A stretch of 64,000 nucleotides of DNA, taken from assembly GCA_041304825.1 (NCBI GenBank), contig JBFYMQ010000001.1, positions 375 to 64,374 of the forward strand. The letters are read 5' to 3'. Position numbers and translations under genes: made by a program. The notes under the pieces are model-generated. The model did no database searches. It was not told where the DNA came from and saw nothing but the letters and a program-made list of their open reading frames with translations. Within the stretch, counting starts at the first letter, position 1; each line of letters starts with the position of its first letter. The stretch comes from Thermoplasmatales archaeon (lineage in GTDB: Archaea > Thermoplasmatota > E2 > DHVEG-1). Shown here piece by piece: positions 21,901 to 56,901 of this stretch.

Positions 21901-22034
21901 AAACTAGAAACAATTAGAATGTCTTTTACTCTATAGGGCATGAGGGCATGGTAAATTTGTGTACCTTGGTCGTAGGTTCCTTCGAAATCATCTTGGATTC
22001 GTGAGCTATGAAATCCTGCCTCTTCCACTTTCAT
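18966..22034 (-). CDS. Large protein (1022 aa): tandem receiver-like (pseudo-REC) N-terminal domains plus a PPDK-type PEP/pyruvate-binding ATP-grasp-like domain.
   Basis: The C-terminal half has RGDSLGGKGRGLAFM and LAVRSSSLLEDYQNHPFAGMYSTYLL. These match the PPDK_N motifs GGKGANLAEM and VAVRSSAxxEDLPxASFAGQ. The N-terminal ~300 aa show CheY-like alternating beta/alpha patterns (VKDILIVSS..., VRVIIMVED...). Confidence 0.6.
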   Translation of the reverse strand: MKVEEAGFHSSRIQDDFEGTYDQGTQIYHALMPYRVKDILIVSSLYDAFTIEEEGLIAELVIGQYQHLLLSQPPRVTRVFSGEKAIHKIKEHRYDLIITMAKNIGMDPFDFGKKIKKLHPELPIVLLATDRADINQFQDREDVKEGVDKIFAWTGDPTLFLAIIKYVEDSMNVRYDTVNGNVRVIIMVEDSIYHYSMFLPILYTEVVQQTRRSLSEDLNEMQRQLRRRARPKILLAETFEEAMYYYKKYKDYILGILSDVTFKKDGSVNPTAGFEFARLIRKDSIHLPIMMQSTDLANRERADILDAYFLHKKSPTLVQDFQHFLVNHLGFGDFLFLLPKDIKQQKKKIIYSSPEELHIQTTEIARASNMREFEEALQRIPMESLLYHSERNHFSNWLMARCEFDLAKELRPKKVSDFSDLNAVREYLISVFNEARKSKQRGIITDFDEQKFEFDSSFTRLRGDSLGGKGRGLAFMRSLLTHYKLEDKYKNILIKVPNTVVIGTLEFDRFISDHNLHRFFKNEQFTDSEIANAFLECGICGELKQKLKVILHHFRTPLAVRSSSLLEDYQNHPFAGMYSTYLLPNNHQDDENRLNQLCQAIKLVYASVFFREPKAYAESLSLKIEEEKMAVIIQELVGTEFNGRYYPTFSGVAKSYNFYPVTYQTPEEGIINIAVGLGKAVVGGEKVFRFSPQYPEINPDFSSPELVLEHTQRELYVLNTHNKDFQLCDPSDNHILKLQTTDIRNDGSLDQVASSYDRNDGVIRDGLSETGLPLITFAGILKYDAFPLAPLLKDLLLLGQKGMGCPVEFEFAVNIDPQKRTRPTFGILQIRPFVVSTEQLDIGWDNKIAKKQIFIRSDRALGNGLIHTIQDVVYVPSDRFDSSKTVEIAEEIGNINKTLVASAAPYLLMGPGRWGTQDRWLGIPVRWGQISGARVIIETALENFNIKPSQGTHFFQNMISHGIGYIDIPLNSESCYIDCEWLENQRHTKKMKYVDHVHFSAPLHIKLDGRSGRAIILKPGKT

Positions 22035-23371: not shown

Positions 23372-24751
23372 TTACACGATTCCCTGATCGAGCATCGCAT
23401 CAGCGACTTTGACAAATCCAGCGATATTTGCTCCTTTGATATAATCGATTTTATCCTTGGAGACTCTTCCGTATTTCACGCAGGCCTCGTGGATGTTCTT
23501 CATGATCTGATGGAGGTGTTTGTCGACTTCTTCTGCGGTCCAGTTCAGCCGCATACTGTTCTGTGCCATCTCAAGACCAGAGACTGCGACACCACCAGCA
23601 TTGACTGCTTTGCCAGGAGCGTACATCATTTTCTCTGTGGCGAATTTCGCGGCTTCATAGGTACATCCCATGTTGGAGACTTCAGCGACTAACATACAGC
23701 CGTTCTTTGCAAGCATTTTTGCATCGTCAAGATCTAGCTCGTTTTGGGTTGCACACGGCATTGCGATATCACATTTCACGTCCCAAGGTCTCTTATTTGC
23801 ATGGAATGGAACATTGAATTTCTTTGCAAAATCCTCGACTCGATCATTGTTTGAGGCGCGCATCTCTAGCATATATTCGATTTTTTCTCCTTTGATTCCA
23901 TCCTTATCATAGATATATCCATCTGGACCGGAGAGCGTGACAACTTTACCGCCAAGCTCATTTATCTTCAATGCACAACCCCAGGCGACATTCCCAAAAC
24001 CAGAGAGTGTCACGGTCTTGCCTTTGAAACTATCATTTTTCAATTTGAGCATCTCGGAGGCAAAGTAGACACCACCATATCCCGTGGCCTCAGGTCTGAT
24101 CAGGCTGCCGCCCCAGTTCATGCCTTTTCCAGTTAAAACACCAGTAAACTCGTTTCTTAATTTCTTGTACATCCCAAATAAATATCCGATTTCTCTGCCA
24201 CCGACACCGATATCACCAGCGGGAACATCCGTATTCGGGCCGACATGACGGAATAATTCCATCATAAAGGATTGACAAAACCGCATGATTTCCATGTCTG
24301 ATTTTCCTCGGGCGTTGAAATCAGAACCGCCTTTTCCGCCACCCATCGGTAACGAAGTCAGGCTGTTTTTAAAAATCTGTTCAAAACCAAGGAACTTCAA
24401 AATACTGAGGTTGACACTCGGGTGGAATCGCAGACCTCCTTTGTATGGTCCGATTGCGCTGTTAAATTCGACTCGATACCCGCGATTCACCTGGATTTCC
24501 CCTTTATCATCGACCCAGGGGACACGGAACATGATTGCTCGTTCTGGTTCTACGAGTCGTTCCAGAATTTTTGCTTTTTTGTATTTCGGATTTTTTTCTA
24601 TAAAGGGCATGACGCTTTCTGCGAATTCTTGAACCGCTTGATGAAATTCTTTTTCACCAGGATTTTTTTCCATGACTTTTTCCATGAATGTTTTCAAATT
24701 TTCATCCATAAGGATAGCCTCCAAATGTTCGTGGTCCGTATCAGCCTCCAT
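23372..24751 (-). CDS. gdhA: Glutamate dehydrogenase.
   Basis: Has KGGLRFHPSVNLSILKFLGFEQIFKNSLT...GGGKGGSDF, the GDH signature. Confidence 0.95.
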   Translation of the reverse strand: MEADTDHEHLEAILMDENLKTFMEKVMEKNPGEKEFHQAVQEFAESVMPFIEKNPKYKKAKILERLVEPERAIMFRVPWVDDKGEIQVNRGYRVEFNSAIGPYKGGLRFHPSVNLSILKFLGFEQIFKNSLTSLPMGGGKGGSDFNARGKSDMEIMRFCQSFMMELFRHVGPNTDVPAGDIGVGGREIGYLFGMYKKLRNEFTGVLTGKGMNWGGSLIRPEATGYGGVYFASEMLKLKNDSFKGKTVTLSGFGNVAWGCALKINELGGKVVTLSGPDGYIYDKDGIKGEKIEYMLEMRASNNDRVEDFAKKFNVPFHANKRPWDVKCDIAMPCATQNELDLDDAKMLAKNGCMLVAEVSNMGCTYEAAKFATEKMMYAPGKAVNAGGVAVSGLEMAQNSMRLNWTAEEVDKHLHQIMKNIHEACVKYGRVSKDKIDYIKGANIAGFVKVADAMLDQGIV

Positions 24752-24898
24752 TATTAAAATCTATGTATTAAAAAAGGGAAAAAATGATATCACCTCAATG
24801 ATTTTCTGTTAGGAATAAACCTCTCAATTCCCCGGTTTTATCGCAAGGTATTAATAGAGATTAAAGATTCAAAAATCAACTAACGGGGGACAAATTTC

Positions 24899-25363
24899 AT
24901 GAGGACAGCAGATATCGACAGAATTCTTAAAAAACATGATAATAAAAAATCTGCGTTAATACCGATTCTTCAAGATATACAATCAGAACATCGATGGCTG
25001 CCGTGTGAGACCCTTAAATATGTGTCTGAAAAACTAGACATTCCCCTCATCGATGTGTATAGCCTTGCCACATTTTATAAGTCATTTAGTCTGAAACCAC
25101 GGGGAAAACATGTTGTGACAGCATGTTGTGGAACCGCCTGTCATGTCCGAGGTGGTCCTAAAGTTTTACAAGAATTACAAAATGAATTACACATAGGTGT
25201 TGATGAGACAACACCGGATCAAAATTTCACATTAGAGACGGTTCGATGTCTTGGTGCTTGTGCACTTGGGCCACTTGTGGTCATCGACGGAAAATATCAT
25301 GGGCAGATGAACACAAAAAAAGTCGCTTCGACTTTAAAAAAATACTCAAAGAAAAAGAAATAA
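24899..25363 (+). CDS. NuoE/HoxE-like thioredoxin-fold [2Fe-2S] subunit.
   Basis: Has ACCGTACHVRG ... CLGACALGPLVVIDGKYHG. Confidence 0.8.
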   Translation: MRTADIDRILKKHDNKKSALIPILQDIQSEHRWLPCETLKYVSEKLDIPLIDVYSLATFYKSFSLKPRGKHVVTACCGTACHVRGGPKVLQELQNELHIGVDETTPDQNFTLETVRCLGACALGPLVVIDGKYHGQMNTKKVASTLKKYSKKKK

Positions 25364-25408
25364 CGCATGGTTCAACAACCTTAAAATTATCCGGATATGT
25401 GATAAAAA

Positions 25409-28400
25409 ATGAAAAAAATACAAACCGCTTCGGATCTCAAGGATGTCAGAGAAACCATTACGAAAAACACACGGAACGGAAAAACTATCGTCACACTCTG
25501 TGGTGGAACCGGCTGCCATGCTTCAGGATGTAGCACCGTTATCTCCGCATTTAAACGAGAACTGAAAAAACAAAAACTCAAGGATAAAGTTGACCTAAAA
25601 GTAACGGGCTGTCATGGTTTTTGTGAAAAAGGACCTATTGTCGTCCTTCATCCAAAAGGAATTTTCTACAAACAAGTAAAAGCTAAAGATGTAAAAGAAA
25701 TAGTTGAACAGACACTTCTCAAAGGTAAAATTGTTGACCGTTTACTCTACAACGATCCATTAACCGGGAAAAAAATCACCTTGGAAAAAGACGTACAATT
25801 CTACAAAGGACAGGAACGCATCGTCTTTGCTGACAACGGCTTGCTTGACCCCTATAAAATTGAGGATTTTATTGCTATTGGTGGATATACCGCTGCAGTC
25901 AAAGCACTGACTACTATGTCCCCGGAAAGAATCATTGATGAAATAAAAAAATCAGGGTTACGCGGACGAGGCGGCGCGGGGTTCCCCACTGGGGTGAAAT
26001 GGGAATCATGTCGAAACGCAAAAGGTTCAACAAAATATATCATATGCAATGCAGACGAAGGTGATCCCGGTGCGTATATGGACCGGAGTCTTATTGAAGG
26101 TAACCCCTTTAGTATCTTGGAAGGAATGTTGATCGGTGCGTTTGCTATCCATGCAAACCAGGGAATCATCTATGTTCGAGACGAATATCCTATCGCTGTT
26201 CAAACTATGAAAAACGCAATCACCCTTGCACGAAAATGGGGGTTCTTAGGTAAAAATATCCTTGACTCGGGTTTTGATTTTGATCTTTCGATTGTTCGAG
26301 GCGCGGGCGCTTTTGTCTGTGGCGAAGAAACCGCTCTTATTGCCTCTGTTGAAGGAAAAAAAGGAGAACCACGACAACGACCACCGTTCCCGACCCAAAA
26401 AGGACTCTGGGGGAAGCCGACGAACATCAACAACGTTGAGACCTGGGCAAATGTCCCCTATATCATCAACAAAGGATCAAAATGGTATTCGAGTATTGGA
26501 ACTGAAAAAAGCAAGGGAACCAAAATATTTTCACTTGTTGGGAAGATTAACAATACCGGTCTTGTTGAAGTTCCGATGGGAATCACACTTAAAGAAATGA
26601 TTTATAGTATTGGCGGTGGTATTCCTGAGGGTAAATCCTTTAAGGCGGTCCAAACCGGTGGACCATCAGGTGGCTGTATCCCTAAAGAACTACTCGAAAC
26701 CCCTATAGATTACGAGAAGCTCAAGGAAGTAGGCTCCATCATGGGATCTGGTGGTATGGTGGTGATGGACGAGGACACCTGCATGGTCGATGTTGCCCGG
26801 TATTTCCTTGAATTCCTTCAGGATGAATCCTGCGGGAAATGTCTCTCCTGTCGTGAAGGAACGAAACGGATGGCCGAAATCGTCACCGATATTACAAAGG
26901 GACAAGGGAAAGAAGGAGACATTGAGCTCTTACAGGAGCTTGCTACTGCCGTAAAAGATACATCGATGTGTGGTCTCGGTCAGACCGCTGCAAACCCGGT
27001 GCTGTCAACAATAAAGTTTTTCTCTGCTGAATACGAAACCCATATCATGGACCGGAAGTGTCCAGCGGGAGTATGCAGAGATCTTTATATCTCACCGTGT
27101 CAGAATGCATGCCCTGCTGGTATGAACGCACCAGGATATATTTCATTAATCGGCGAGGGGCGTTTTACAGAGGCTCTTGAACTAGCGCTTGATACAAATC
27201 CATTCCCCTCCGTCTGTGGACGTATTTGTGATCATCAATGTATGTTCAAATGTCGACGAAATCAGATAGATGAACCGGTCGCAATCCGATCACTCAAACG
27301 GTTCATCGGGGATTACGAAGAAAATGGGATAGATTATCCAAAAATCAAGCTCCCTACGTTCACCATGCCTTTCAAAGTAGCAATTGTCGGTGCAGGACCT
27401 GCTGGTCTGAGCTGCGCTTATTTCCTAGCTCGATTAGGATACAAACCAACCGTGTTTGAAAAACTCCCTGTTGCTGGTGGAATGATGGCGGTCGCAATCC
27501 CGGAGTATCGACTACCGAAAGCCATTTTGCAACGAGAAATCGATAACATAAAGAAACTTGGTGTGAATATCAAGTTGAATACCCAAGTTGGAGAAGATAT
27601 CACTATCTCCCAGTTATGGTCCCAAGGGTATCAGGCATTTTTTGTAGCCGTCGGAATGTATGGTGACAGAAATTTGGGTATCCCTGGGGAGAACCTGGAA
27701 AATGTTATTCAAGCAGTTGATTTACTCTCCGACATCAATCTGGACAAACCCGTTGTGTCACCCGCCGGCAAGAAAGTAGTCGTTATCGGAGGTGGAAATT
27801 CAGCAGTCGATGCTGCACGAACCATGCTACGCATGGGTGCAAGCAGCGTTGCCATCATCTATCGTCGAACCCGCAGAGAAATGCCAGCGTACGTCGAAGA
27901 AATCGAAGCCGCCGAACATGAAGGTGTACAAATCAAATTCCTCACCGCTCCTGAAAAAATCTTCGGTGAAAAAGGTAAGGTAAAAAGCATCGAATGCATT
28001 AAAATGCGACCAGGGGAATTCGACACCGAAGGAAGACAAAAACCAGTGCCTGTCAAAGACAGCAATTTTTTCATTGATGCGGACATTGTGGTCCCTGCGA
28101 TTGGAGAATTTTCCGATGTGTCTGGATTGTTCACCGGGCTTGATGTAGAGACGAACCGTGACGGGACGATTAAAACAGACAAACACGGCAGAACGAGTAT
28201 TCCTGGGTTATTCTCTGGAGGTGATGTCGTTTCAGGTCCTGCAACCGTCATCAACGCGATTGCATCAGGGGAGCGTACCGCAGTTACCATTGATCAATAT
28301 CTCACAAAAGATAGAACCAGAAAATATCCCTGGCGGGAGCATAAGAAAGTTGATACGTTTTTTGACCCGGAGGCAGAACCAGTCAGTTACCGGATGCAGA

Positions 28401-28567
28401 AACCAAAGACACTCTTACCTAAGGATCGACGAGGGTGTTTCGACGAAGTGGAGTTATCATTTACTCAAGCGCTTGCAAAAAAAGAGGCAAAACGATGCCT
28501 CCGCTGCGACCTTGAGCTTGAGTTACAAGAAAAACTGCAAAAAGAAAAACCATTGGAGGTGACGTGA
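25409..28567 (+). CDS. Fusion protein: NuoE-like [2Fe-2S] domain, then NuoF-like NADH/FMN/[4Fe-4S] flavoprotein, then GltD/NfnB-like FAD-NAD(P) oxidoreductase domain.
   Basis: Has CGGTGCHASGC...GCHGFCEKGP; GLRGRGGAGFPTGVKWESC; CGKCLSCREG; VAIVGAGPAGLSCAYFLARLGYKPTVFE; VVIGGGNSAVDAART. It is a single 1052-aa ORF. Confidence 0.8.
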   Translation: MKKIQTASDLKDVRETITKNTRNGKTIVTLCGGTGCHASGCSTVISAFKRELKKQKLKDKVDLKVTGCHGFCEKGPIVVLHPKGIFYKQVKAKDVKEIVEQTLLKGKIVDRLLYNDPLTGKKITLEKDVQFYKGQERIVFADNGLLDPYKIEDFIAIGGYTAAVKALTTMSPERIIDEIKKSGLRGRGGAGFPTGVKWESCRNAKGSTKYIICNADEGDPGAYMDRSLIEGNPFSILEGMLIGAFAIHANQGIIYVRDEYPIAVQTMKNAITLARKWGFLGKNILDSGFDFDLSIVRGAGAFVCGEETALIASVEGKKGEPRQRPPFPTQKGLWGKPTNINNVETWANVPYIINKGSKWYSSIGTEKSKGTKIFSLVGKINNTGLVEVPMGITLKEMIYSIGGGIPEGKSFKAVQTGGPSGGCIPKELLETPIDYEKLKEVGSIMGSGGMVVMDEDTCMVDVARYFLEFLQDESCGKCLSCREGTKRMAEIVTDITKGQGKEGDIELLQELATAVKDTSMCGLGQTAANPVLSTIKFFSAEYETHIMDRKCPAGVCRDLYISPCQNACPAGMNAPGYISLIGEGRFTEALELALDTNPFPSVCGRICDHQCMFKCRRNQIDEPVAIRSLKRFIGDYEENGIDYPKIKLPTFTMPFKVAIVGAGPAGLSCAYFLARLGYKPTVFEKLPVAGGMMAVAIPEYRLPKAILQREIDNIKKLGVNIKLNTQVGEDITISQLWSQGYQAFFVAVGMYGDRNLGIPGENLENVIQAVDLLSDINLDKPVVSPAGKKVVVIGGGNSAVDAARTMLRMGASSVAIIYRRTRREMPAYVEEIEAAEHEGVQIKFLTAPEKIFGEKGKVKSIECIKMRPGEFDTEGRQKPVPVKDSNFFIDADIVVPAIGEFSDVSGLFTGLDVETNRDGTIKTDKHGRTSIPGLFSGGDVVSGPATVINAIASGERTAVTIDQYLTKDRTRKYPWREHKKVDTFFDPEAEPVSYRMQKPKTLLPKDRRGCFDEVELSFTQALAKKEAKRCLRCDLELELQEKLQKEKPLEVT

Positions 28568-29268
28568 TGATTGAGATGTCACTTGATGGAATCCCTGTTC
28601 AGGTTGAAGAAGGATCAACGATTCTTGATGCTGCACGATTCTACGGAATAGAAATACCAACCTTATGTCATATGGACGGATTATCATCCTATGGTGCCTG
28701 TCGCCTATGCGTTGTTGAAATCGGCAAAGGAGAAAACGCAAAACTTGTCTCATCATGCACCTATCCAGCGGAGCAAGGATTGTTAGTTCGAACAAACTCG
28801 AAAAGGGTCGTCACTGCCCGGAAGATACTTGTCGAGTTGCTCGTAGCAATGTGCCCCTCCTCAAAAACCGTCCAAGATCTTGCGTCAGCTATGGAAGTAA
28901 CACAAGTGCGATTCAAGGTAGATCGAACGAACGATTGCATCCTTTGTGGTCTCTGTGTACGGATGTGTGAGGAGCAGATGATGGCAAAAGCAATCGGGTT
29001 TGTGAACCGCGGGAAGAACCGTAAAATAACCACCCCCTTTGATATGAAATCAGAGGTATGTCGAACCTGCGGTGGCTGTATGTATATTTGCCCTGCATGT
29101 GAGCTGCGTTGTCAAGGACCAAATGCAGAGACTGATCTGTGTAACGCATGTTTAAATGTTCAACCAGTATGTTTAAAGGAAGAGGATAACAAAATGTGCT
29201 TCCTTGAAACTTGCGGATGGTGTTATGAGGAATTAGGACGAAAGAAAAAGAAAATGGAGAAGAAATAG
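28567..29268 (+). CDS. NuoG N-terminal-like [2Fe-2S]/[4Fe-4S] ferredoxin-domain protein.
   Basis: Has GACRLCVVEI (plant-type 2Fe-2S) and further Cys clusters CILCGLCVRMC and CRTCGGCMYICPAC. Its ATG overlaps the upstream TGA (TGATG). Confidence 0.65.
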   Translation: MIEMSLDGIPVQVEEGSTILDAARFYGIEIPTLCHMDGLSSYGACRLCVVEIGKGENAKLVSSCTYPAEQGLLVRTNSKRVVTARKILVELLVAMCPSSKTVQDLASAMEVTQVRFKVDRTNDCILCGLCVRMCEEQMMAKAIGFVNRGKNRKITTPFDMKSEVCRTCGGCMYICPACELRCQGPNAETDLCNACLNVQPVCLKEEDNKMCFLETCGWCYEELGRKKKKMEKK

Positions 29269-29288
29269 ATGATTGGAGGGAAAAGAGA

Positions 29289-30869
29289 ATGTCATTAACA
29301 AAAATAAATGCATCTGCTGCAACGCTAAGTAAAAACAGAACTGAAGGAGCCATTAACACACTCAGTGGGATGTGTGCGACCTGTGTCGATGGGTGTATCG
29401 GCATGTGTGAAATAGGCAAATCCGCCTATCGTGGTCATGAGGTTATTTACCCACAGCCGTTTGGGATTATCACCTCGGCCTGTGAGAAGGTATACCCCGT
29501 TGACTTATCTCATTTCACGATCCTTGGTGGTGTTGTTGGTGCCTGGGGTATAGAGACGAATAGCGATCGGGCGATTTTCTCAAATGTGAACCTAGAGCGG
29601 ACTATCTGTAAGGAAAATCCTCTGAAGGTGAAGATGCCGATGATCATTCCAGGTCTTGGTTCTACGGCGATTGCGAAAAATAACTGGGAAGGTCTTGCGG
29701 TTGGTGCGGCAATCACCGGTATTCCCTTGACCATTGGTGAGAATGTCTGTGGTATGGATCCTGACGCGGAGTTCGTCAAAGGGAAAGTGAAGCATTCACC
29801 TGACCTCGAATGGCGAGTGAATCTCTATAAGAAATGGCAGCAGAAGGGGTATGGTGCCATTGTTGTTCAAGCTAACGTAGAAGATACCAGCCTTGGCGTC
29901 CATGAATATGCGATTTCAGATTTGGATGTTGATGCTGTTGAATTGAAATGGGGACAGGGCGCAAAGAACATTGGCGGTGAAGTAAAAATTAAAGAACTCA
30001 AGAGGGCACAGGAATTAAAGAAACGAGGCTATGTGGTACTCCCGGATCCAACTGATCCAAATATCATCGCTGCATTTGAAAAAGGAAGTTTCAGAGAATT
30101 TGAACGACATTCTCGTGTCGGTATGGTTTCCGAGGCTGGATTTATGAAACGTGTCAAGGAACTACGTGACTGTGGTGCGAAACGCGTTTTCCTAAAGACA
30201 GGTGCTTACCGGCCAGTCGCACTAGCACAGGCAGTGAAATTTGCATCGAAAGCAAAAATTGATTTACTGACAGTGGACGGTGCCGGTGGTGGTACCGGAA
30301 TGAGCCCTTGGCGTATGATGAATGAATGGGGCGTCCCACCAGTTGAACTTCATTCGATGCTGTACAAGTATGTCGATAAGCTCGCCAAGAACGGGGAGTA
30401 TGTCCCGGATATCGCGATTGCAGGTGGATTTACCTTCGAAGATCAAATTCTCAAAGGTCTTGCTCTTGGTGCTCCCTACTTTAAGCTTATTGGTATGGCC
30501 CGAGGGCCTCTTGCTGCAGCGATGGTTGGGAAAACCATAGGCAAGAAAATCAACGAATCCATAGTCCCTGTGTACATTGAACGTTTCGGCAATACTCCTG
30601 AGGAAATCTTTGTGACCGCCCCGGAATTGAAGAAAAAATATGGAAAAGACTTTGACAAACTCCCCACTGGTGCTATTGGTCTATATACGTATATGGAACG
30701 CTTGCATCAAGGGTTACGACAGATCATGGCTGGTTGTCGAAAATTCACCTTGGACTACATCTCACGAGATGATATCGCCTGCCTTACCAAGGAATCAGCG
30801 GACATCAGTGGTCTGCCGTACATCACGGATGTAGATGACAAAGAAGTCGCAAAAATACTTGGTGCTTAA
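29289..30869 (+). CDS. Glutamate synthase FMN-binding subunit (archaeal split GltB, domain 2). There is no amidotransferase domain.
   Basis: WGQGAKNIGGE and LTVDGAGGGTGMSP match the GltS motifs QGAKPGEGG and ISGHDGGTGASP. It has an N-terminal Cys cluster CATCVDGCIGMC and a GGAGG-like SD. Confidence 0.8.
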   Translation: MSLTKINASAATLSKNRTEGAINTLSGMCATCVDGCIGMCEIGKSAYRGHEVIYPQPFGIITSACEKVYPVDLSHFTILGGVVGAWGIETNSDRAIFSNVNLERTICKENPLKVKMPMIIPGLGSTAIAKNNWEGLAVGAAITGIPLTIGENVCGMDPDAEFVKGKVKHSPDLEWRVNLYKKWQQKGYGAIVVQANVEDTSLGVHEYAISDLDVDAVELKWGQGAKNIGGEVKIKELKRAQELKKRGYVVLPDPTDPNIIAAFEKGSFREFERHSRVGMVSEAGFMKRVKELRDCGAKRVFLKTGAYRPVALAQAVKFASKAKIDLLTVDGAGGGTGMSPWRMMNEWGVPPVELHSMLYKYVDKLAKNGEYVPDIAIAGGFTFEDQILKGLALGAPYFKLIGMARGPLAAAMVGKTIGKKINESIVPVYIERFGNTPEEIFVTAPELKKKYGKDFDKLPTGAIGLYTYMERLHQGLRQIMAGCRKFTLDYISRDDIACLTKESADISGLPYITDVDDKEVAKILGA

Positions 30870-30887: not shown

Positions 30888-31982
30888 TCATTCCTTATGC
30901 TTTAACCCATGGCCTGTTAATGGTAGAACAACCACCTGATTTTTGTGTAGATGATGTTTTTTAAGGGCTGCCAGAACGACAGCGGACGTCGGTTCAATAT
31001 AATATCCTTTTTTTCGTATGTAATAAAGTGCATCGAGAATCTCTTTTTCCGTTACAGTAAGTATATCTCCGTTTGTTTCTTTTACGGAATGCAGAATATC
31101 GTTTGCTCGTACAGGATTGCTTATCGCGATACCTTCTGCGATTGTCTCCTTTGGAGAATTACCGGATGTTGGCTCATCCTTGTTTTTCCATGCATTTGCT
31201 AATGGAGCGCAGTTCTCTGCTTGTACGCCGATAATCCTTGGGAGTTTATCGATAATATTTTCTTGTTGTAATTCCTTTAAACCGATATACGAGCCGTAGA
31301 GGAGAGTTCCGTTTCCAACTGGGATGATAAGAACATCGGGTGTTTTCCATCCAAGTTGTTCAACGATTTCAAAGATACATGTTTTTGTTCCATGGAAAAA
31401 ATAAGGGTTCCAATAGTGACTTGCGTAATAGGTTGTTTGAGCATGATTCCATGCAGCTAGTGCGGTATCCTTTCTACTCCCCTGTACAACATGCAGATGT
31501 GCACCGTATTGCTTGATTTGTATGAGTTTTTCTGGGGAGGTTTTTTCTGGGGTGTAGATATGACAATCGATTGATGCTTTTGCGCAGTACGCAGCTATCG
31601 CAGCACCTGCATTGCCTGAAGAGTCTTCAACGACTTTTTTAAGTCCTAGTTCCTTTATCTTACTGACTAACACCGATGCACCGCGGTCCTTATACGATCC
31701 GCTTGGGAAAAGATGCTCTTGTTTTAACAAAACTTTTTTACCAAACACCTCTTCTTGGATGAGGGGCGTGAATCCTTCATCAAACGAGATGATATGGCGA
31801 TCTTGGTTGATCGGAAGTGCTTCGCGGTATCGCCAGAGATTTGGTTTTCTTTTTTTGATGTTGCTTATTGGGAATCGTGCATGAAAATCGAGTGTCAATA
31901 ACCCGCCGCAGGTACAGTTCCATCTCGGTTCAGACGAGGAATATTCTGCATGACATGATTGGCATAGTAGTTTACTTTTCAT
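30888..31982 (-). CDS. thrC: Threonine synthase (short archaeal type with an N-terminal Zn-ribbon).
   Basis: Has FPSGSYKDRGASVLVSKIKELG (PLP Lys motif) and N-terminal CQSCHAEY...CTCGG. Confidence 0.8.
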   Translation of the reverse strand: MKSKLLCQSCHAEYSSSEPRWNCTCGGLLTLDFHARFPISNIKKRKPNLWRYREALPINQDRHIISFDEGFTPLIQEEVFGKKVLLKQEHLFPSGSYKDRGASVLVSKIKELGLKKVVEDSSGNAGAAIAAYCAKASIDCHIYTPEKTSPEKLIQIKQYGAHLHVVQGSRKDTALAAWNHAQTTYYASHYWNPYFFHGTKTCIFEIVEQLGWKTPDVLIIPVGNGTLLYGSYIGLKELQQENIIDKLPRIIGVQAENCAPLANAWKNKDEPTSGNSPKETIAEGIAISNPVRANDILHSVKETNGDILTVTEKEILDALYYIRKKGYYIEPTSAVVLAALKKHHLHKNQVVVLPLTGHGLKHKE

Positions 31983-32086: not shown

Positions 32087-34807
32087 TTACATTCTAATGT
32101 AGAACAACAGAATCGTTGCATTCTGGGTCATGGTCACCGAGCTGTAGGAATGTGATGCTGAAACGGTGATGCTGGTTTTTCCGAACCCAAGAATCAAATC
32201 AGAACTAATCGTTCGTTCTCCACCAGGTGCGATACTTAACAGGCTCCCACTTGTCTGTTTCCCGATAAATACATTACCTGAGAGGGTGATATTCCATTGT
32301 ACGTTGGTAATATCGATGACACCAGTGTTTTTGACCACTGTTTTAATTTTGAAAAAACCGCCAGAAACCAAACCTATCTCAAGTTGGGGAGCGATGATCG
32401 TGATATCAAAGGCTTCTGACCAATCGCTTTCAGCACCTATTAGATTTTTTGCTTTCGCAGTGATTGAATAATTACCTTCCTCCGACCAAGTATGTGAGAG
32501 GAGAACAGGAACTCCTGAGGCAGAGGGACCAAACCATTCCTGATGACTTCCATCTCCCCATTCGACCCAGTAAAACAGGTTTGAATTGCCTGGATCAGTG
32601 GTGACGAAGGTGAAATCCATCTGCCGTCCAACATCCCCTTGCGTTGATCCGTTGATCTCTGGTGGGAACGGTGCGGAGAGCACAGGGCTAACCACCAAGG
32701 CATAGTCTGCGTCTAATTCTGGTGTTTCGATATGAGAATCCTGGATTATCTCATCTGCAGACACCTGAACGGTCCATGTTCCTACTTCAGGGTTCTGTAC
32801 AAAGACACATTCGACCGTATCTTTCGTATCAGCAGCTCCATCTGGCTGAGACCATACACCATTCTTAAGACCATTATTCCCCCAGTATATCACATCAGAT
32901 GGAGAAATGACCTTCAAGCTTAAATCATTAATTCGGTGCTGTGTTTGAACACTGGGATTTCCCGCAGGATCTGCATAGGTCATTGTGACCTTCAGGTATG
33001 GTGAACCGGACTCAACCGCAACCATGTGGGTTGATACATCAAAGGGTTCAAGGACATCTGTTTCATCTATGATATAGAAATTATCTCGTAAATCATATAA
33101 GTTCTTCTCAGACGGCATCCCCCATCCTTGATGCATGCGGGTTTTATCCTCTGTAGTGCCATTAAAAGGATATTGATCCGCTGTGTTGATCATCATCGCT
33201 TTTGCCGTCGTCATATGAGGCCGGTTCTCAAAAACCGTTCCTTCCGGGTCAACCTCGTTTCCAAAGATACCATCAGACCACATCTGATAGAATAACCCGA
33301 AATGACCAGCGATGATGGGTGTTGCTCCGCTCGTACCGCCAAAGCCATCAGTATATGCGGTCGGACTCCCTGAGGTTGTGGTAAATATCATGTCATAAAA
33401 AGAACAGAGGTCAGGTTTAATTCTCCCATCAGTGGCAGGTCCAATGCTTGCCCCATAACTCCATTCATCATCGGTTTTTATCAATGTATCATAGTGGTAG
33501 ATACCTCCGCCAGAGACGATGTTCTTCGCCCATGCCTGTGGTCTGGACATCTGATCACCAGCATTGCTTTGTGATTGACAATGAAGCACATCAAAATCAA
33601 TGAGCGCTGAATCGGTATCTGCGGATATCGTGGTGTACTGGGTTGTCCGATCGCTTCCTACACTTGAAGTCTCAAACACACCATAGTATGGATCTTGAAC
33701 CAACTCTCCTGTGTGGAGATATCGATTCGTTCCCTCTAGTCCGATATAATTATAATCCCCGACAATCCCTTGTCCTTCAGGTAACATCCCACGACCCTTT
33801 GGGTTACCGGTTCCATCTCCAAAGACGATCCCTGAGGTTGAGGCACCATGGGAATCACTGCCGACGTTCCCATGGAGGATTAATGGACGTGATTGAAAAT
33901 CGACATGAGCGAGATTAAATCCCGCATCGAAAACCTCCCCTCGGACACCGCTTCCGTTATACCCTGCAATAGATTCGATATAGTCTGCACCCCCGATTTC
34001 CCGTGCGATATCCATATCAGCTTCATAGGGACTCCAACGGTCGACAAACAACACTTCATCCCAGCGTATGAGCAGGAATAGTTGATCGGGTGATAAGGTA
34101 GCCTCAATGAGGAATTTCCCTGCATCCCCCTTGTTGACTCTTCCACCTATTGATTTGATTCGTTCAGTAACAATGGTTTTTTGTTCTGTTGAAAGCACCT
34201 GGATGTTGTATTGTTGGAGGGGATAGCTTTGATAAGCGTTTTCGAGGTTCTCAAGCAGAAATTCCTCAAGCCGGTACGCGGGGTGATAAAGCCCAATCCA
34301 ACGTACATACGGCAGTGTTTCAACCTCTGTTCGTATTGATTTACTCATCTCTACAAGATAGGCGTATTGAGCGATATAATGACGCACGATGCCACCGCAT
34401 GCAGTAATCGCTGCTTGGTATTCTTGAAGTGGTTGTGTAAAAAACTGGACAATATACAGATGGGTATCCTCACTTGCGGTTAAAAGTGGTTCAATGGATG
34501 GTTCTCCCGTCAAAGGATCGAAATACGCATACCGCAGACCAATTTCGTAGGATGGTTGAACGGTTCTTACATATGTTTTTCCACTATCTAAACTGATTGA
34601 ATAAAACGGTACTATCTCACCATTGTCAAGTTGTTCATCCCATAATTTGACGAGAACTGATGAATCAGGTAAAGTGATACATCGTTCATTAACGACGTTA
34701 CTATCTGGTTTGAAAAACACAGTATTTCCGGTGGCGTTCAATGCTGTCGGAATGCACAATGCACTGACGATGAGGCTTATTATTATATATTTTATTCTTC
34801 TATTCAT
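32087..34807 (-). CDS. Secreted subtilisin-like serine protease (S8) with a PKD-like domain and extra beta-rich C-terminal domains.
   Basis: Has a signal peptide MNRRIKYIIISLIVSALCIPTALNA and the subtilase Ser motif GTSGATP. The PKD-like segment is YWVEWGDGSHQEW...HTWSEEGNYSITAKAKN. Confidence 0.75.
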   Translation of the reverse strand: MNRRIKYIIISLIVSALCIPTALNATGNTVFFKPDSNVVNERCITLPDSSVLVKLWDEQLDNGEIVPFYSISLDSGKTYVRTVQPSYEIGLRYAYFDPLTGEPSIEPLLTASEDTHLYIVQFFTQPLQEYQAAITACGGIVRHYIAQYAYLVEMSKSIRTEVETLPYVRWIGLYHPAYRLEEFLLENLENAYQSYPLQQYNIQVLSTEQKTIVTERIKSIGGRVNKGDAGKFLIEATLSPDQLFLLIRWDEVLFVDRWSPYEADMDIAREIGGADYIESIAGYNGSGVRGEVFDAGFNLAHVDFQSRPLILHGNVGSDSHGASTSGIVFGDGTGNPKGRGMLPEGQGIVGDYNYIGLEGTNRYLHTGELVQDPYYGVFETSSVGSDRTTQYTTISADTDSALIDFDVLHCQSQSNAGDQMSRPQAWAKNIVSGGGIYHYDTLIKTDDEWSYGASIGPATDGRIKPDLCSFYDMIFTTTSGSPTAYTDGFGGTSGATPIIAGHFGLFYQMWSDGIFGNEVDPEGTVFENRPHMTTAKAMMINTADQYPFNGTTEDKTRMHQGWGMPSEKNLYDLRDNFYIIDETDVLEPFDVSTHMVAVESGSPYLKVTMTYADPAGNPSVQTQHRINDLSLKVISPSDVIYWGNNGLKNGVWSQPDGAADTKDTVECVFVQNPEVGTWTVQVSADEIIQDSHIETPELDADYALVVSPVLSAPFPPEINGSTQGDVGRQMDFTFVTTDPGNSNLFYWVEWGDGSHQEWFGPSASGVPVLLSHTWSEEGNYSITAKAKNLIGAESDWSEAFDITIIAPQLEIGLVSGGFFKIKTVVKNTGVIDITNVQWNITLSGNVFIGKQTSGSLLSIAPGGERTISSDLILGFGKTSITVSASHSYSSVTMTQNATILLFYIRM

Positions 34808-35051: not shown

Positions 35052-36410
35052 GTGAGGAACATGATCAGTACATACACGATGAAATCATTAAACAAGGAAT
35101 CTGTCTTAGCAATGGTACGGGAAAATAATGTCCTTTTCGTTCGTTTACAATTTATTGACATTCTTGGAATGCCTAAGAACATTGTCATACCGGTCAATGG
35201 GCTTGAGTCTGCCTTAGATGAAGGCGTCCCTTTTGATGCATCATCAATCGCTGGGTACGCAACGATTGAAGAATCAGATAAAATCGCAAAACCAGATCCT
35301 TCAAGTTTTGTGATTCTCCCCGAATGCGTTGAAGAAAGAAAAACCGCAAAACTCAATTGTGATATCTATGAGCCAAACGGGAAACGATTCGAAGGTGATG
35401 TTAAATATATTTTAGAAAAAATGGTAGAAAAAGTAGCGAAAATTGGCTACATCTACAATACCGGCCCTGAATGTGAGTTTTTTTTGTTTAAAAAAAATGG
35501 TGAAAACTCAACCGTCATTCCAAATGACACCGCCGGGTACTTTGATTTATCACATCGTGATCTTGCTGAAGGCGTCCGAGCTGATATTTCTTTAGCGTTG
35601 GAGGCTGTTGGAATCCAACCGTATACCGCTCACCATGAATGTGCGGATGGTCAGCAAGAAATTAACTTTAATTACGCAGATGCCATCACCACAGCTGACC
35701 GAGTGATTACTCTCAAATATATTACAAAGGTCATTGCAACAAAACATAATCTCCATGCATCTTTCATGCCAAAACCCCTCTATGGACAATGTGGTTCTGG
35801 TATGCATACCCATCAATCGCTCTTTACGTTAGACGGCTCGAATGCATTCTATGACCCTACGGATAAAAACCAGTTAAGTCCTGTGGCGTACCAATTTATT
35901 GCAGGTCTGCTGAAATATATCAAAGAGTTTTCCTGTGTGTTAAATCAAACCGTGAATTCCTACAAACGATTGGTTCCTGGCTATGAAGCACCAACTTATA
36001 TTGCTTGGGCGAACCGGAATCGCAGCGCGTTGATCCGTATCCCTTCGAAACGGGGAAAAAGCACGCGGTGTGAACTTCGAAACCCTGATGTTGCTTGCAA
36101 TCCTTATTTAGCATTCTCTGTGATGCTTGCAGCAGGCTTACGAGGAATCGAAGATAAACTTGAGGCACCAGCCCCTGTTGAGAAGAATATCTATGCATTG
36201 TCAGAAGAGGAACGTCAAAAATACGGTATTGAGCAGCTCCCGGAAAGTCTTGGACATGCGGTAGCGGTGATGAGCAAAAGTAGCCTGGTACGAGAAACAC
36301 TGGGTGACCATATCTTTGAGAATTTAATTCATGTGAAACGAAAAGAATGGGATGCCTATCGGTTACAAGTGACGAAATGGGAAGTGGATACGTATCTTCC
36401 TCTTCTTTAA
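35052..36410 (+). CDS. glnA: Glutamine synthetase type I.
   Basis: The GS beta-grasp and catalytic domain are conserved throughout (NGKRFEGDV..., MHTHQS, NRSALIRIP). Confidence 0.95.
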   Translation: MRNMISTYTMKSLNKESVLAMVRENNVLFVRLQFIDILGMPKNIVIPVNGLESALDEGVPFDASSIAGYATIEESDKIAKPDPSSFVILPECVEERKTAKLNCDIYEPNGKRFEGDVKYILEKMVEKVAKIGYIYNTGPECEFFLFKKNGENSTVIPNDTAGYFDLSHRDLAEGVRADISLALEAVGIQPYTAHHECADGQQEINFNYADAITTADRVITLKYITKVIATKHNLHASFMPKPLYGQCGSGMHTHQSLFTLDGSNAFYDPTDKNQLSPVAYQFIAGLLKYIKEFSCVLNQTVNSYKRLVPGYEAPTYIAWANRNRSALIRIPSKRGKSTRCELRNPDVACNPYLAFSVMLAAGLRGIEDKLEAPAPVEKNIYALSEEERQKYGIEQLPESLGHAVAVMSKSSLVRETLGDHIFENLIHVKRKEWDAYRLQVTKWEVDTYLPLL

Positions 36411-55929: not shown

Positions 55930-55934
55930 GGGAA

Positions 55935-56843: not shown

Positions 56844-56901
56844 AGGTGGTCACCGTAAACCTTAATCAAAGGTCCTTCATTTAACCATTTGGGAACATCT
56901 T

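Follow-up and report, generated by a model that had tools for sequence, protein, structure and literature searches.

What kind of enzyme is encoded where relatives of the NADH-binding subunits of bifurcating hydrogenases lie directly upstream of a glutamate synthase-like FMN protein? This question is raised by four genes in the window analysed here, a stretch of 64,000 nucleotides from a Thermoplasmatales archaeon (GenBank assembly GCA_041304825.1, contig JBFYMQ010000001.1, positions 375 to 64,374). A first-pass annotation had proposed an NADH-linked, possibly bifurcating 2-oxoglutarate-aminating enzyme, in which an Stn-like module replaces or extends the GltD partner of glutamate synthase. 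Profile searches, structure comparisons and related loci were here used to follow up this proposal.

Organization of the locus

ORF calling placed four tightly packed genes of the same direction at positions 24899-30869 of the plus strand (Table 1), with intergenic gaps of 45 nt (ORF1-ORF2) and 20 nt (ORF3-ORF4) and with a TGATG at 28565-28569, in which the TGA stop of ORF2 overlaps an ATG of ORF3. A GGAGG is located ahead of the ORF3 start at 28555-28559, and an in-frame GTG for ORF3 is present at 28564. All coordinates and features of the operon given in the first-pass annotation were reproduced by ORF calls and domain searches, and the neighbouring gdhA, glnA and NfnAB-like genes were confirmed. 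The operon is placed between gdhA and glnA and shares an intergenic region of 147 nt (24752-24898) with the divergent gdhA.

Table 1. Coordinates of the four genes, their predicted domains and motifs, and neighbouring genes in the window
Feature	Position	Strand	Description
ORF1	24899-25363	+	154 aa; BfuC/NuoE/HydC-like thioredoxin-like [2Fe-2S] subunit
ORF2	25409-28567	+	1052 aa; BfuB/NuoF/HydB-like with in-frame NfnL/GltD-like FAD-NAD(P)H module
ORF2 N-terminal domain	25469-25711	+	Thioredoxin-like [2Fe-2S], B5-type; residues 21-101, Cys31/36/68/72
ORF2 NuoF core	25853-27046	+	NADH/FMN site, SLBB, B1 [4Fe-4S]; Cys475/478/481/521
ORF2 B2-site motif	ends at 27076	+	His545...Cys551-PAGV-Cys556, directly after NuoF core
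ORF2 C-terminal module	27074-28513	+	NfnL/GltD-like; 2x[4Fe-4S] Fer4_20, FAD GAGPAG at residue 661, NAD(P)H GGGNSA at residue 794
ORF3	28564-29268	+	234 aa; short BfuA/NuoG-N/WorA-like iron-sulfur connector
ORF4	29289-30869	+	526 aa; divergent GltS-synthase-like FMN TIM-barrel protein
ORF4 4-Cys motif	29373-29408	+	Cys29-x2-Cys32-x3-Cys36-x3-Cys40; N-terminal; predicted [4Fe-4S]/electron entry site
ORF4 QGAKNIGGE	29955-29981	+	Residues 223-231; aligned with GltB QGAKPGEGG
ORF4 DGAGGGTGMSP	30276-30308	+	Residues 330-340, FMN-phosphate loop; aligned with GltB GYDGGTGASP
gdhA	23372-24751	-	NADP-specific glutamate dehydrogenase; Pfam ELFV_dehydrog; NCBIfam PRK09414, 733 bits (cutoff 536)
glnA	35052-36410	+	Glutamine synthetase; Gln-synt_C, E 2e-125
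NfnAB-like pair	16635-18838		Separate, 7 kb upstream of the operon

Conservation of gene order and of the ORF2 fusion

Gene order in related genomes, a check proposed with the first-pass annotation, was analysed in the 80 most similar loci, the best 80 of at least 543. Among these, the full order ORF1-2-3-4 was found in 53 of the 54 loci with enough flanking sequence, the single exception merely having a larger gap, and in 73 of the 74 with sufficient flank for this pair the ORF4 ortholog is immediately preceded by ORF3. The related loci span more than 20 archaeal and bacterial phyla, including Thermoplasmatota, Methanophagales, Altiarchaeales, Omnitrophota, Zixibacteria, Aminicenantes, Bacteroidota, Planctomycetota, Chloroflexota and Firmicutes. 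The operon is conserved in hundreds of species, far beyond chance.

ORF2 occurs in two natural variants, fused (33) and unfused (20) among the loci with the full operon. An assembly or frameshift error joining two genes, an a priori possibility in metagenome-derived sequence, is refuted for practical purposes: fused ORFs of 1001-1079 aa share the same in-frame junction (…CPAxVC[K/R]xxxxSPCQ…) in 39 independent loci from many phyla, and HydB with a C-terminal GltA/GltD-like domain has been reported for hybrid hydrogenases of Thermoplasmatota (PMC11216029). The fusion is therefore genuine and conserved. At the position of the module, the unfused orthologs have CxxCxxCxxxCP...CxxCxxCxxxC, so that about 40% of the orthologous operons carry the canonical ferredoxin-like 2x[4Fe-4S] domain of BfuB instead. 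This B3/B4 domain is required by the definition of the Bfu core (PMC9304861); the unfused orthologs thus fall within that definition, while the fused BfuB of the window is without the domain. Since the GltD-like domain is optional, the conserved core is Bfu plus ORF4, and of the earlier proposal the Stn/HydBC-like module stood and the extended GltD did not.

ORF1 to ORF3 resemble the subunits of bifurcating enzymes

ORF1 belongs to PF01257 (E 1.9e-51), and its top PDB matches are HydC subunits of bifurcating hydrogenases (8a6t_C, E 3e-43; 7t2r_C); Cys76/81/117/121 are 100% conserved in 30 orthologs. In ORF2, Pfam detected a partial PF01257 (residues 21-101, E 5.7e-10), Complex1_51K, SLBB, NADH_4Fe-4S, Fer4_20 (556-638, E 3e-23) and Pyr_redox_2 (655-954, E 2e-38) in this order. 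The N-terminal domain aligns with the N-terminus of HydB (7t2r_B), and in ortholog alignments C68 and C72 are 88-100% conserved, C31 and C36 just 24-50%. Whether the orthologs are fused or unfused, the Cys and His residues of the NuoF core (TIGR01959 nuoF_fam, 502 bits) and of the B2-site motif behind it show 96-100% conservation, and the counterpart of CPAGVC in A. mobile HydB is CPAKIC. Residues 28-559 scored 625-756 bits against the solved bifurcating BfuB subunits 7t2r, 7q4v, 9mqx, 8a6t, 9n5u, 9bov, 8oh5 and 7p5h, with 756 bits for A. mobile NiFe-HydB (7t2r_B), and 400 and 386 bits against the non-bifurcating FdsB and Nqo1; by these scores the core resembles bifurcating BfuB far more than NuoF/FdsB. 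The C-terminal module, with conserved Cys564/568/607/611/615/1030/1033, matched C. saccharolyticus NfnA (9bov_A, residues 562-1034, 392 bits) and, judged by its matches, is nearer the NfnL/NfnA/'GltA' type than true GltD.

ORF3 comprises Fer2_4 (E 2e-17), 2x[4Fe-4S] and a Cys-rich C-terminal tail. Its top PDB match is 9mqx_A (E 4.8e-34), the WorA subunit of WorABCSL (9MQX; PMC12318220). In 63 orthologs, C35/46/49/65, C125/128/131/135 and C166/169/172/176 are 100% conserved, and eight more C-terminal Cys (179-220) 95-100%. The best PDB matches of ORF1, ORF2 and ORF3 are hence all subunits of bifurcating enzymes, which bears out the Bfu-type assignment.

The same genes could also encode a linear, non-bifurcating NADH/NADPH-dependent glutamate synthase-like enzyme without ferredoxin, the NuoEF-like module serving as a diaphorase, the role of HoxEFU in NAD-reducing hydrogenases and of FdsBG in formate dehydrogenase. 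With NADH as donor, the reduction of 2-oxoglutarate/NH4+ is exergonic and can proceed uncoupled, ORF2 of the window has no B3/B4 domain, and in NCBIfam ORF1 matched HoxE best and ORF3 matched HoxU best; however, both matches are far under their cutoffs (157 versus 224; 119 versus 333). Besides the closeness to bifurcating BfuB, ORF2 has retained both the B2-site motif and the 2Fe-2S domain at its N-terminus, two features that non-bifurcating homologs are without (PMC9304861), and the unfused orthologs keep a ferredoxin-binding domain. The linear enzyme is thus considered unlikely.

ORF4 is a remote relative of the glutamate synthase FMN domain

PF01645, the glutamate synthase FMN family to which the first-pass annotation had assigned ORF4, was the only Pfam family matched (E 4.6e-16, 59.4 bits versus a cutoff of 20.4), which agrees with the absence of a glutaminase domain noted before. 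The match covers residues 280-400 only, the FMN-phosphate half of the barrel. PF01645 was matched by 21 of 23 family members and, over the whole family, scored clearly above FMN_dh and IMPDH. Orthologs in the 80 loci, which come from many phyla, are 68-96% identical, and none of the other three proteins is as well conserved as ORF4. The motifs QGAKNIGGE and DGAGGGTGMSP are invariant or nearly so among homologs; the former was aligned to 'IKVAQGAKPGEGG' of E. coli GltB (greedy hhalign) and the latter to the GltB FMN domain by BLASTP, hhalign and hmmsearch. Cys29/32/36/40, the sole conserved Cys of ORF4, are 100% conserved in 78 sequences and probably form a [4Fe-4S] electron entry site, in a region poorly modelled by AF2 (pLDDT <50).

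The AF2 model (pTM 0.72) is a TIM barrel of the generic FMN type. Its neighbours in structure comparison were IDI-2, alpha-hydroxy-acid oxidases/dehydrogenases, IMPDH and FabX, and GltS was not among them; neither phmmer nor a profile search gave a PDB match, and no NCBIfam model matched. The ORF4 profile matched GltB with 74% probability over about 90 residues (hhalign), and in a control IMPDH (GuaB) as strongly. By profile comparison, ORF4 is only remotely GltS-like. These results also fit a Bfu-type complex whose kinship with PF01645 reflects shared FMN-barrel ancestry only, and whose substrate is another 2-oxo, imino, hydroxy-acid or enoyl compound or an N-alkyl amino acid; other PF01645 members, such as N-methylglutamate synthase subunit C, are not known to be GOGATs. 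A different substrate is possible but less likely, because besides the PF01645 scores the QGAK...GG and an upstream GE motif were aligned with the synthase site of GltB, about 60% of the operons have a fused GltD-family module, and the only recurrently adjacent metabolic genes are those of glutamate/glutamine metabolism. The substrate is probably 2-oxoglutarate/glutamate.

Because of its invariant 4-Cys motif and because it has no pyridine-nucleotide domain, ORF4 would need an Fe-S redox partner, and the extra conserved C-terminal Cys are found in ORF3. This argues against ORF1-3 being a self-contained Nfn/Stn-type NADH:NADP+ (ferredoxin) transhydrogenase with which an independent ORF4 is just co-transcribed. 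In the fused variant, such an enzyme would have the domain content of NfnABC, pairing a site for NADH with an NfnL-like one for NADPH/FAD, and could draw NADPH from the neighbouring NADP-GDH, yet in unfused operons ORF4 is still immediately downstream although the NADPH module is absent. Given also the high conservation of ORF4, the short adaptor-type ORF3 and the separate NfnAB-like pair, this arrangement is very improbable.

Genomic context

The nitrogen-gene context recurs: among the best 80 of at least 543 loci, 15 have a GDH gene no more than 10 kb away from the operon and 5 have glnA nearby. The proximity of gdhA and glnA supports a glutamate link, at the level of gene neighbourhood, and the GDH genes could be adjacent on account of NADPH coupling instead of a substrate in common. 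Upstream sigma-54 regulators in bacterial loci are generic members of the NtrC family and not assignable to NtrC. Pfam detected neither GATase_2 nor GXGXG in any scanned ORF of the window; the scan took in one ORF of 149 aa and 41 of the 48 that reach 150 aa (4 of the 7 others overlap scanned genes). Nor was a glutaminase/GXGXG gene found in the operon or among the conserved neighbours of related loci. A GOGAT-type, glutamine-dependent reaction is therefore unsupported. GltS-like synthase domains normally perform poorly with ammonia. One ORF4 paralog adjoins a gene with a class-II amidotransferase domain.

Proposed enzyme

The four genes are best explained, with a probability of roughly 0.5, as one soluble, multi-subunit iron-sulfur flavoenzyme of the Bfu (HydABC/NfnABC) type with ORF4 as catalytic subunit, most likely acting on 2-iminoglutarate/glutamate, and with NADH bifurcation as a plausible mechanism; the Bfu identity is supported by ORF2, which has the N-terminal 2Fe-2S domain, the B1 ligands and the B2-site motif. 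ORF1 and the N-terminal 550 residues of ORF2 would form an NADH-binding FMN/[4Fe-4S]/[2Fe-2S] core, from which ORF3 would relay single electrons via a [2Fe-2S] and two [4Fe-4S] clusters, its Cys-rich C-terminus probably docking the catalytic subunit. Electrons would enter ORF4 by the 4-Cys cluster and reach FMN in the barrel, where 2-oxoglutarate and free ammonia would most likely be converted via 2-iminoglutarate to glutamate, or the reverse. Beside NADH, the third partner is probably NADP(H) in the fused variant, in which ferredoxin possibly docks at the two [4Fe-4S] clusters of the module, and would be ferredoxin in unfused orthologs. Overall, the oxidation of NADH could plausibly send electrons both to 2-oxoglutarate/NH4+, the high-potential couple, and to ferredoxin or NADP+ as an acceptor of lower potential. 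A glutamate-forming, bifurcating function is plausible; we infer complex formation, substrate, direction and bifurcation alike.

Comparison with known systems

No description of a Bfu module combined with a GltS-like FMN subunit was found in the literature searched, and the operon looks like an undescribed enzyme class, a variant of the Bfu family. Its presumed core is the site of bifurcation in solved relatives, and high-potential third substrates are known for Bfu enzymes, namely H2O2 and menaquinone (PMC9304861, Table 1). As a short BfuA of the adaptor type, ORF3 resembles WorA, whose role is to serve an additional catalytic module. In contrast to Stn/NfnABC, in which the GltD-like domain is part of BfuA, it is here part of BfuB, where it takes the place of the ferredoxin-like B3/B4 domain of canonical BfuB. 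The 3Fe-4S cysteines, the glutaminase domain and the GXGXG domain of GltS are all absent from ORF4, whereas the QGAK and FMN-phosphate motifs of GltS are kept and an invariant N-terminal 4-Cys motif of its own is added.

Operon organization and domain content

Four co-directional genes, whose positions agree exactly with those of the first-pass annotation, are separated by intergenic gaps of 45 nt and 20 nt and by a TGATG stop/start overlap of ORF2 and ORF3 at 28565-28569, with GGAGG located just 5′ of the overlap. The domain content read earlier from the sequence was borne out by Pfam and NCBIfam scans of the ORFs. ORF1 is a complete thioredoxin-like [2Fe-2S] protein of the NuoE/HoxE/HydC type (PF01257, E 1.9e-51). 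In ORF2, Pfam places a partial second thioredoxin-like [2Fe-2S] domain at the start (residues 21-101, partial PF01257), followed in order by the NuoF FMN/NADH domain (Complex1_51K), an SLBB domain and the NuoF [4Fe-4S] domain (NADH_4Fe-4S), and at the end by Fer4_20 (GltD/DPD-type 2x[4Fe-4S], residues 556-638) and Pyr_redox_2 (FAD/NAD(P)H, residues 655-954). ORF3 consists of a plant-type [2Fe-2S] domain (Fer2_4) and a 2x[4Fe-4S] domain, and ORF4 is a GltS-like FMN protein.

Positions of the operon genes and of further features of the window
Feature	Position	Strand	Length	Remark
ORF1	24899-25363	+	154 aa	
ORF2	25409-28567	+	1052 aa	
ORF3	28564-29268	+	234 aa	
ORF4	29289-30869	+	526 aa	
Response-regulator receiver + PPDK_N (PEP-utilising, ATP-grasp) protein	18966-22034	-	1022 aa	
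Threonine-synthase-like PLP enzyme	30888-31982	-		NCBIfam 277 vs threonine synthase cutoff 301
Subtilase-like protein, secreted/surface	32087-34807	-	906 aa	weak Peptidase_S8 match
Cyclodeaminase FTCD_C	55300-56016	-		Pfam domain
Formiminotransferase FTCD_N/FTCD	55935-56843	-		Pfam domain
Imidazolonepropionase-like amidohydrolase	56902-58119	+		
CarboxypepD_reg/Big_1 protein, secreted/surface	58217-61489	+	1090 aa	

Conservation of the operon and the two forms of ORF2

In a scan of one genome per species, relatives of ORF4 turned up in at least 543 species, and the operon statistics were compiled by tblastn with the four proteins as queries for the 80 most similar loci. ORF3 is located directly upstream of ORF4 in 73 of the 74 loci with enough flank, and the full co-directional set ORF1-ORF2-ORF3-ORF4 is present in 53 of 54 loci, the exception (L017) differing by a 700-nt spacer only; the gene order, proposed as a check when the operon was first noticed, is thus conserved in related genomes. 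Among the 80 loci, the carriers include archaea (Thermoplasmatota, Methanophagales (ANME-1) and Altiarchaeales) as well as bacteria of the Omnitrophota, Zixibacteria, Aminicenantes, Acetothermia, Aerophobetes, KSB1, Latescibacterota, Ignavibacteria, Bacteroidota, Planctomycetota, Chloroflexota, Firmicutes, Actinomycetota, Desulfobacterota, Myxococcota and others. The closest relatives of the window are Thermoplasmatota MAGs with ORF4 identities of 96% and 90%.

Two architectures of ORF2 were found. The fused form (1001-1079 aa, 39 loci) ends in the NfnL/GltD-like module and shows the same junction as the window protein (…CPAxVC[K/R]xxxxSPCQ…), while the unfused form (612-680 aa, about 28 loci) ends in a ferredoxin-like CxxCxxCxxxCP…CxxCxxCxxxC domain. 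The GltD-like module takes the place of the ferredoxin-like domain at the same position of ORF2, and it is missing from about 40% of the orthologous operons. A frameshift or assembly artefact, which had been considered as an explanation of the NuoF::GltD fusion, was rejected because the same junction is conserved in 39 loci; the fusion is real. It follows from the two architectures that the conserved core comprises the NuoE-, NuoF- and NuoG-N-like parts together with ORF4, the GltD-like module being exchangeable and optional.

ORF4 is the most conserved subunit, the median identity to the window protein over the 80 loci being 70% for ORF4, 61% for ORF3, 58% for the NuoF part, 54% for ORF1 and 43% for the GltD-like part. 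Archaeal and bacterial ORF4 orthologs are 68-77% identical, above every partner subunit, which indicates a very strong constraint. Judged from these sequences, the whole operon has probably moved between the domains repeatedly.

The electron-input module

The ORF1-ORF3 module was compared with all PDB chains and with the sequence features of the electron-bifurcating Bfu (BfuABC) family. Residues 28-559 of ORF2 matched HydB of the A. mobile NiFe-HydABCSL complex (7t2r_B) with 756 bits and the other solved BfuB subunits (HydB of A. woodii, T. kivui and T. maritima; WorB; NfnB/StnB of T. sibiricus, C. saccharolyticus and S. ovata) with 625-738 bits, compared with about 400 bits for FdsB and 386 bits for Nqo1 as non-bifurcating proteins. 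The top PDB matches of ORF1 are HydC/BfuC chains, and its ligands of the BfuC C1 [2Fe-2S] site (Cys76/81/117/121) are 100% conserved. ORF2 has conserved ligands of the B1 [4Fe-4S] cluster (Cys475/478/481/521), as expected for the NADH/FMN part of BfuB. The N-terminal 2Fe-2S domain and the B2 site distinguish bifurcating BfuB from non-bifurcating homologs (Schut et al. 2022, PMC9304861), and both are present in the window ORF2. The B2-site motif (His545/Cys551/Cys556, CPAGVC) is 96-100% conserved; the N-terminal B5 domain contains Cys31/36/68/72 in the window, but conservation of C31 and C36 is only 24-50% in the alignments, and some orthologs may therefore hold a metal centre other than 2Fe-2S at B5.

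ORF3 qualifies as a BfuA subunit: its top PDB match is WorA (9mqx_A, 247 aa, E 4.8e-34), the ligands of its [2Fe-2S] and 2x[4Fe-4S] clusters are 100% conserved, and eight more conserved Cys residues are located in the last 55 residues. This is the layout of WorA, which serves as a short BfuA in the tungsten aldehyde oxidoreductase WorABCSL and docks the catalytic module through the zinc finger and the adaptor helix of its Cys-rich C-terminus. The motif H-x3-C-x2-C-x5-C was absent on reading the ORF3 sequence, and the cluster set is therefore unlike that of long BfuA subunits.

By its sequence, the ORF1-ORF3 module is a relative of the Bfu enzymes and resembles a member of that family. The unfused orthologs (about 28 operons) contain the ferredoxin-like B3/B4 domain and thereby display every sequence-level feature of Bfu members; the window ORF2 has Fer4_20 and Pyr_redox_2 instead and hence represents a variant rather than a canonical member. 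A linear, non-bifurcating enzyme, to which the replaced ferredoxin-like domain of the window protein might point, is unlikely in view of the two BfuB hallmarks and of the higher scores against bifurcating chains.

In the PDB, the C-terminal module of ORF2 (residues 562-1034) has its closest counterpart in the NfnL-like part of NfnA from NfnABC (392, 367 and 342 bits), followed by NfnB/NfnL of NfnSL (333 and 312 bits); among the NCBIfam models, the 'gltA'/PRK12771 type fits it better than true GltD. The FAD fingerprint GAGPAG, the NAD(P)H fingerprint GGGNSA and the conserved cluster Cys residues are all present. In NfnABC, the NfnL-like module lies within BfuA and the ferredoxin-like domain is kept on BfuB (PMC12018979); in the window, it is ORF2 (BfuB) that carries the NfnL-like module and lacks a ferredoxin-like domain, and ORF3 (BfuA) is free of such a module. 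The Stn-like character suggested in the first-pass annotation thus holds for the presence of NuoE-, NuoF- and NfnL-like parts and not for their arrangement, the NfnL-like module being attached to BfuB and optional. These shared parts are what would speak for ORF1-ORF3 as a stand-alone Nfn-like enzyme with ORF4 as an unrelated neighbour, a reading made highly improbable by the nearly invariant linkage of ORF3 and ORF4. A HydB with a C-terminal 'GltA domain' was already reported in Thermoplasmatota hybrid hydrogenase complexes, for which this domain was proposed as the low-potential acceptor site (PMC11216029), and the fusion as such is therefore no novelty.

The ORF4 family

PF01645 ('conserved region in glutamate synthase') is the sole Pfam match of ORF4 (59.4 bits vs a gathering cutoff of 20.4), spanning only residues 280-400, equivalent to profile positions 186-303 of 369; no NCBIfam model matched. 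This places ORF4 in the glutamate-synthase FMN family and agrees with the earlier statement that it has no glutaminase domain. PF01645 was matched by 21 of 23 ORF4 family members (best E 1.4e-17), FMN_dh and IMPDH by three members each (at 7e-5 and 7e-4). At least 8000 clusters at 90% identity match ORF4, the best 120 homolog clusters, from both domains of life, being 73-92% identical; in the library of 50%-identity representatives only 1080 clusters match at E<=1e-3, among them a few paralogous clades at 32-52% identity.

Searches of all PDB chains with phmmer and with a family-profile hmmsearch returned no GltS or other meaningful chain for ORF4. With default hhalign, the family aligned to the FMN domain of E. 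coli GltB over about 90 residues, the probability being 9% for the shallow alignment and 74% once paralogs were included; in the control with the same ORF4 profile, E. coli IMPDH reached 71%, and LldD and PyrD gave no score. As IMPDH scores like GltB, hhalign was dropped as proof of GltS specificity; by itself it fails to single out GltS, whereas the Pfam scan does. A greedier hhalign spans the whole barrel, pairing ORF4 'ELKWGQGAKNIGGE' with GltB 'IQIKVAQGAKPGEGG', 'IGENV' with 'GEGGE' and 'DGAGGGTGMSP' with 'GYDGGTGASP', and aligning the QGAK motif of ORF4 with GltB. The residues which we take to form the GOGAT synthase site are Gln969 and Lys972 of QGAK, Gln978 and Arg992 (Azospirillum/Synechocystis numbering). 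Q223 and K226 of the ORF4 QGAK motif are conserved, E231 or V232 occupies the Gln978 position, and R246 is invariant and one residue out of register with Arg992. In fold searches, an AF2 model of moderate quality (pLDDT 67, with an unmodelled N-terminus) matched FMN barrels of a generic kind.

Three structural hallmarks of the GOGAT alpha subunit were not found. The GltS [3Fe-4S] ligands C-x5-C-x4-C are absent, GltB 'LGCKYLRICHLNNC' aligning with a Cys-free part of ORF4 (about 409-425). Neither a GXGXG (PF01493) domain nor an Ntn class II amidotransferase was detected in ORF4, in the operon, in the Pfam-scanned ORFs of the window or among recurrent neighbours in the 80 loci. The only conserved Cys residues of ORF4 form the pattern C29-x2-C32-x3-C36-x3-C40, which is invariant in 78 sequences. 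Its sequence features mark ORF4 as an FMN TIM-barrel enzyme from the PF01645 lineage, with a putative Fe-S entry site of its own; it retains the QGAK synthase-site motif and yet is no canonical GOGAT subunit. With generic FMN barrels as structural neighbours and IMPDH scoring like GltB, a substrate other than 2-oxoglutarate/glutamate is a possible reading; the PF01645 match and the QGAK motif point to the glutamate couple.

In some genomes a second ORF4 paralog (49-57% identical) is located near the operon, in tandem in Altiarchaeales (L035:8266-11859), between two IclR regulators in Dethiobacter (L071:4129-5712) and, in a single case from the Desulfatiglandales (L059:2997-4643), adjoining a GATase_6/7 (class-II amidotransferase-domain) gene. 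The gene contexts of the distant paralogs P0121 and P0123 are unrelated and uninformative.

Gene neighbourhood

The nitrogen-related surroundings first seen in the raw sequence were recovered: an NADP-type gdhA (Pfam and NCBIfam) is divergent from the operon, glnA follows about 4 kb downstream and an NfnAB-like pair (16635-18838) lies 7 kb upstream. This pair is directly adjoined by an unusual receiver + PPDK_N fusion. The threonine-synthase-like gene and ORF4 are transcribed towards each other, and their stop codons lie only 18 nt apart.

Recurrent neighbours were determined by unbiased clustering of all ORFs in the related loci. Glutamate dehydrogenase is encoded near the operon by 17 genes in 15 loci, including both NADP-GdhA and archaeal/GdhB types, and glutamine synthetase in 5 loci. 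In bacteria, an upstream, co-oriented NtrC-family sigma-54 response regulator (20 loci) and sensor kinase (16 loci) were found. Their assignment as NtrC/NtrB was rejected, given that the AtoC, NtrC and ZraR models score alike and all below cutoff; as the regulators are not assignable to NtrC proper, only glutamate dehydrogenase and glutamine synthetase were counted as functional hints. In 10 bacterial loci (e.g. L053:4727-5182), the gene that directly precedes the NuoE-like one encodes a small Cys-rich protein (about 117-150 aa), which has no Pfam or NCBIfam match and may be an extra subunit or a maturation factor. The NuoE-like subunits of many bacterial loci (e.g. L053:5237-6085) have a C-terminal extension of about 130 aa without a Pfam match (282 aa vs 154 aa in the window).

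The gene content of the window is archaeal (aIF2-beta, FttA, Elp3, Cdc6, primase). The region 55300-58119 resembles a histidine-utilisation gene set, a route ending in glutamate. The formiminotransferase, cyclodeaminase and amidohydrolase genes and the secreted proteases fit a peptide-degrading archaeon with glutamate as a metabolic hub; the large CarboxypepD_reg/Big_1 protein also accords with peptide degradation. Four ORFs of 246-524 aa (8409-9983, 61481-63034, 63068-63898 and 40689-41429) have no Pfam match.

Proposed reaction and implications

The observed parts list, ligands, relatedness and conservation of the operon were used to draw up a candidate mechanism. The four proteins would form one complex in which NADH binds at the BfuB FMN and single electrons pass from B1 via the ORF3 clusters to the 4-Cys cluster and the FMN of ORF4, where 2-iminoglutarate made from 2-oxoglutarate and free ammonia would be reduced. 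The 2-oxoglutarate/NH4+//glutamate couple has a potential near -0.12 to -0.14 V, so that NADH-driven amination would yield enough energy for a second electron pair. This pair would be transferred to ferredoxin via B2-B4 in the unfused form, and to NADP+ via the NfnL-like clusters and FAD in the fused form. We assign a probability of about 30% to the resulting reading, in which the operon would encode an unrecognised, widespread electron-bifurcating glutamate synthase catalysing ATP- and glutamine-independent, NADH-driven amination of 2-oxoglutarate with free ammonia under co-reduction of ferredoxin or NADP+. The sequence data agree equally well with the reverse, confurcating direction, in which reduced ferredoxin would pull the oxidation of glutamate with NAD+ as acceptor; the lactate dehydrogenase/Etf complex is an analogue of such ferredoxin-pulled confurcation. 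Menaquinone and H2O2 were proposed as high-potential third substrates for other Bfu classes (PMC9304861). The 13 third reactions listed in the Bfu papers include none with an amino acid, and the 2-oxoglutarate/glutamate couple is absent from them.

If the operon does encode an electron-bifurcating glutamate synthase, nitrogen assimilation and energy conservation would be directly coupled in anaerobes belonging to more than 20 phyla. A complex working as proposed would add an amino-acid/2-oxo-acid couple at about -0.1 V as a new class of Bfu third substrate, and it would provide a route of glutamate synthesis or oxidation avoiding both GDH-type hydride transfer and the ATP cost of GS-GOGAT. Even with a substrate other than 2-oxoglutarate, the ORF4 proteins make up a large family of uncharacterised enzymes. 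Uncultured anaerobes of sediments and the subsurface (Thermoplasmatota, Aminicenantes, Zixibacteria, Omnitrophota, Bacteroidota, Planctomycetota and others) commonly carry the operon. As its parts are currently annotated as 'NuoE', 'NuoF', 'NAD(P)-binding protein' and 'FMN-binding glutamate synthase family protein', the operon is probably misinterpreted when the metabolism of these groups is reconstructed. The two naturally occurring variants, with a ferredoxin-like domain or an NfnL-like NADPH module at the same BfuB position, are a ready-made experiment on the wiring of the low-potential branch of Bfu enzymes.

Comparison with known systems

No description of the gene combination was found in the searched papers on Bfu, Nfn, ANME, Chloroflexi and other subjects. 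The 2022 Bfu survey left out metagenomic sequences and demanded a ferredoxin-type domain in BfuB, criteria by which most of these operons would have been missed. The 'GOGAT' operon GSU1235-1239 of G. sulfurreducens differs in gene content, as judged by its published annotation, and we suspect that it is a split GOGAT.

The HoxEFU diaphorase of NAD-reducing [NiFe] hydrogenases has NuoE-, NuoF- and NuoG-N-like subunits of similar sizes, and HoxE and HoxU are the top NCBIfam names of ORF1 and ORF3, both well below cutoff (156.7 vs 224 and 119.4 vs 333, respectively); ORF2, however, is nearer to bifurcating BfuB. The group F hybrid [FeFe]/[NiFe] hydrogenase of Thermoplasmatota (Greening et al., Cell 2024, PMC11216029), likened here by its description, shares the kind of NuoF/HydB::GltD-like fusion and the phylum, whereas the fused protein is partnered by a hybrid hydrogenase there and by a GltS-like FMN protein here. 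Sporomusa-type Nfn (NfnABC/StnABC; PDB 8OH5, 9BOV, 9N5U) has the NuoE-, NuoF- and NuoG-N-like parts and the NfnL/GltD-like FAD-NADPH module in common with the operon, in which, by contrast, the module is located at the C-terminus of BfuB, BfuA is short and a fourth, GltS-like subunit is present.

In WorABCSL (PDB 9MQX) and NiFe-HydABCSL (PDB 7T2R) of A. mobile, BfuC, BfuB and BfuA likewise exchange electrons with a separate catalytic module; HydB of the latter is the closest match of the NuoF part of ORF2, and the short WorA of the former that of ORF3 including the Cys-rich C-terminus. Compared with these two complexes, a single FMN/4-Cys GltS-like protein replaces the tungstopterin WOR or the NiFe hydrogenase, and the window BfuB carries an NfnL/GltD-like FAD module in place of the ferredoxin-like domain. 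With the synthase/FMN domain of GOGAT alpha, including split archaeal GOGATs and F420-dependent GltS, ORF4 shares PF01645, the QGAK...GG and GE motifs and the FMN-phosphate loop, and a GltD-family domain is likewise encoded in the operon of ORF4. The GltS synthase core is served by varied electron-input modules, namely NADPH-GltD, ferredoxin and F420.
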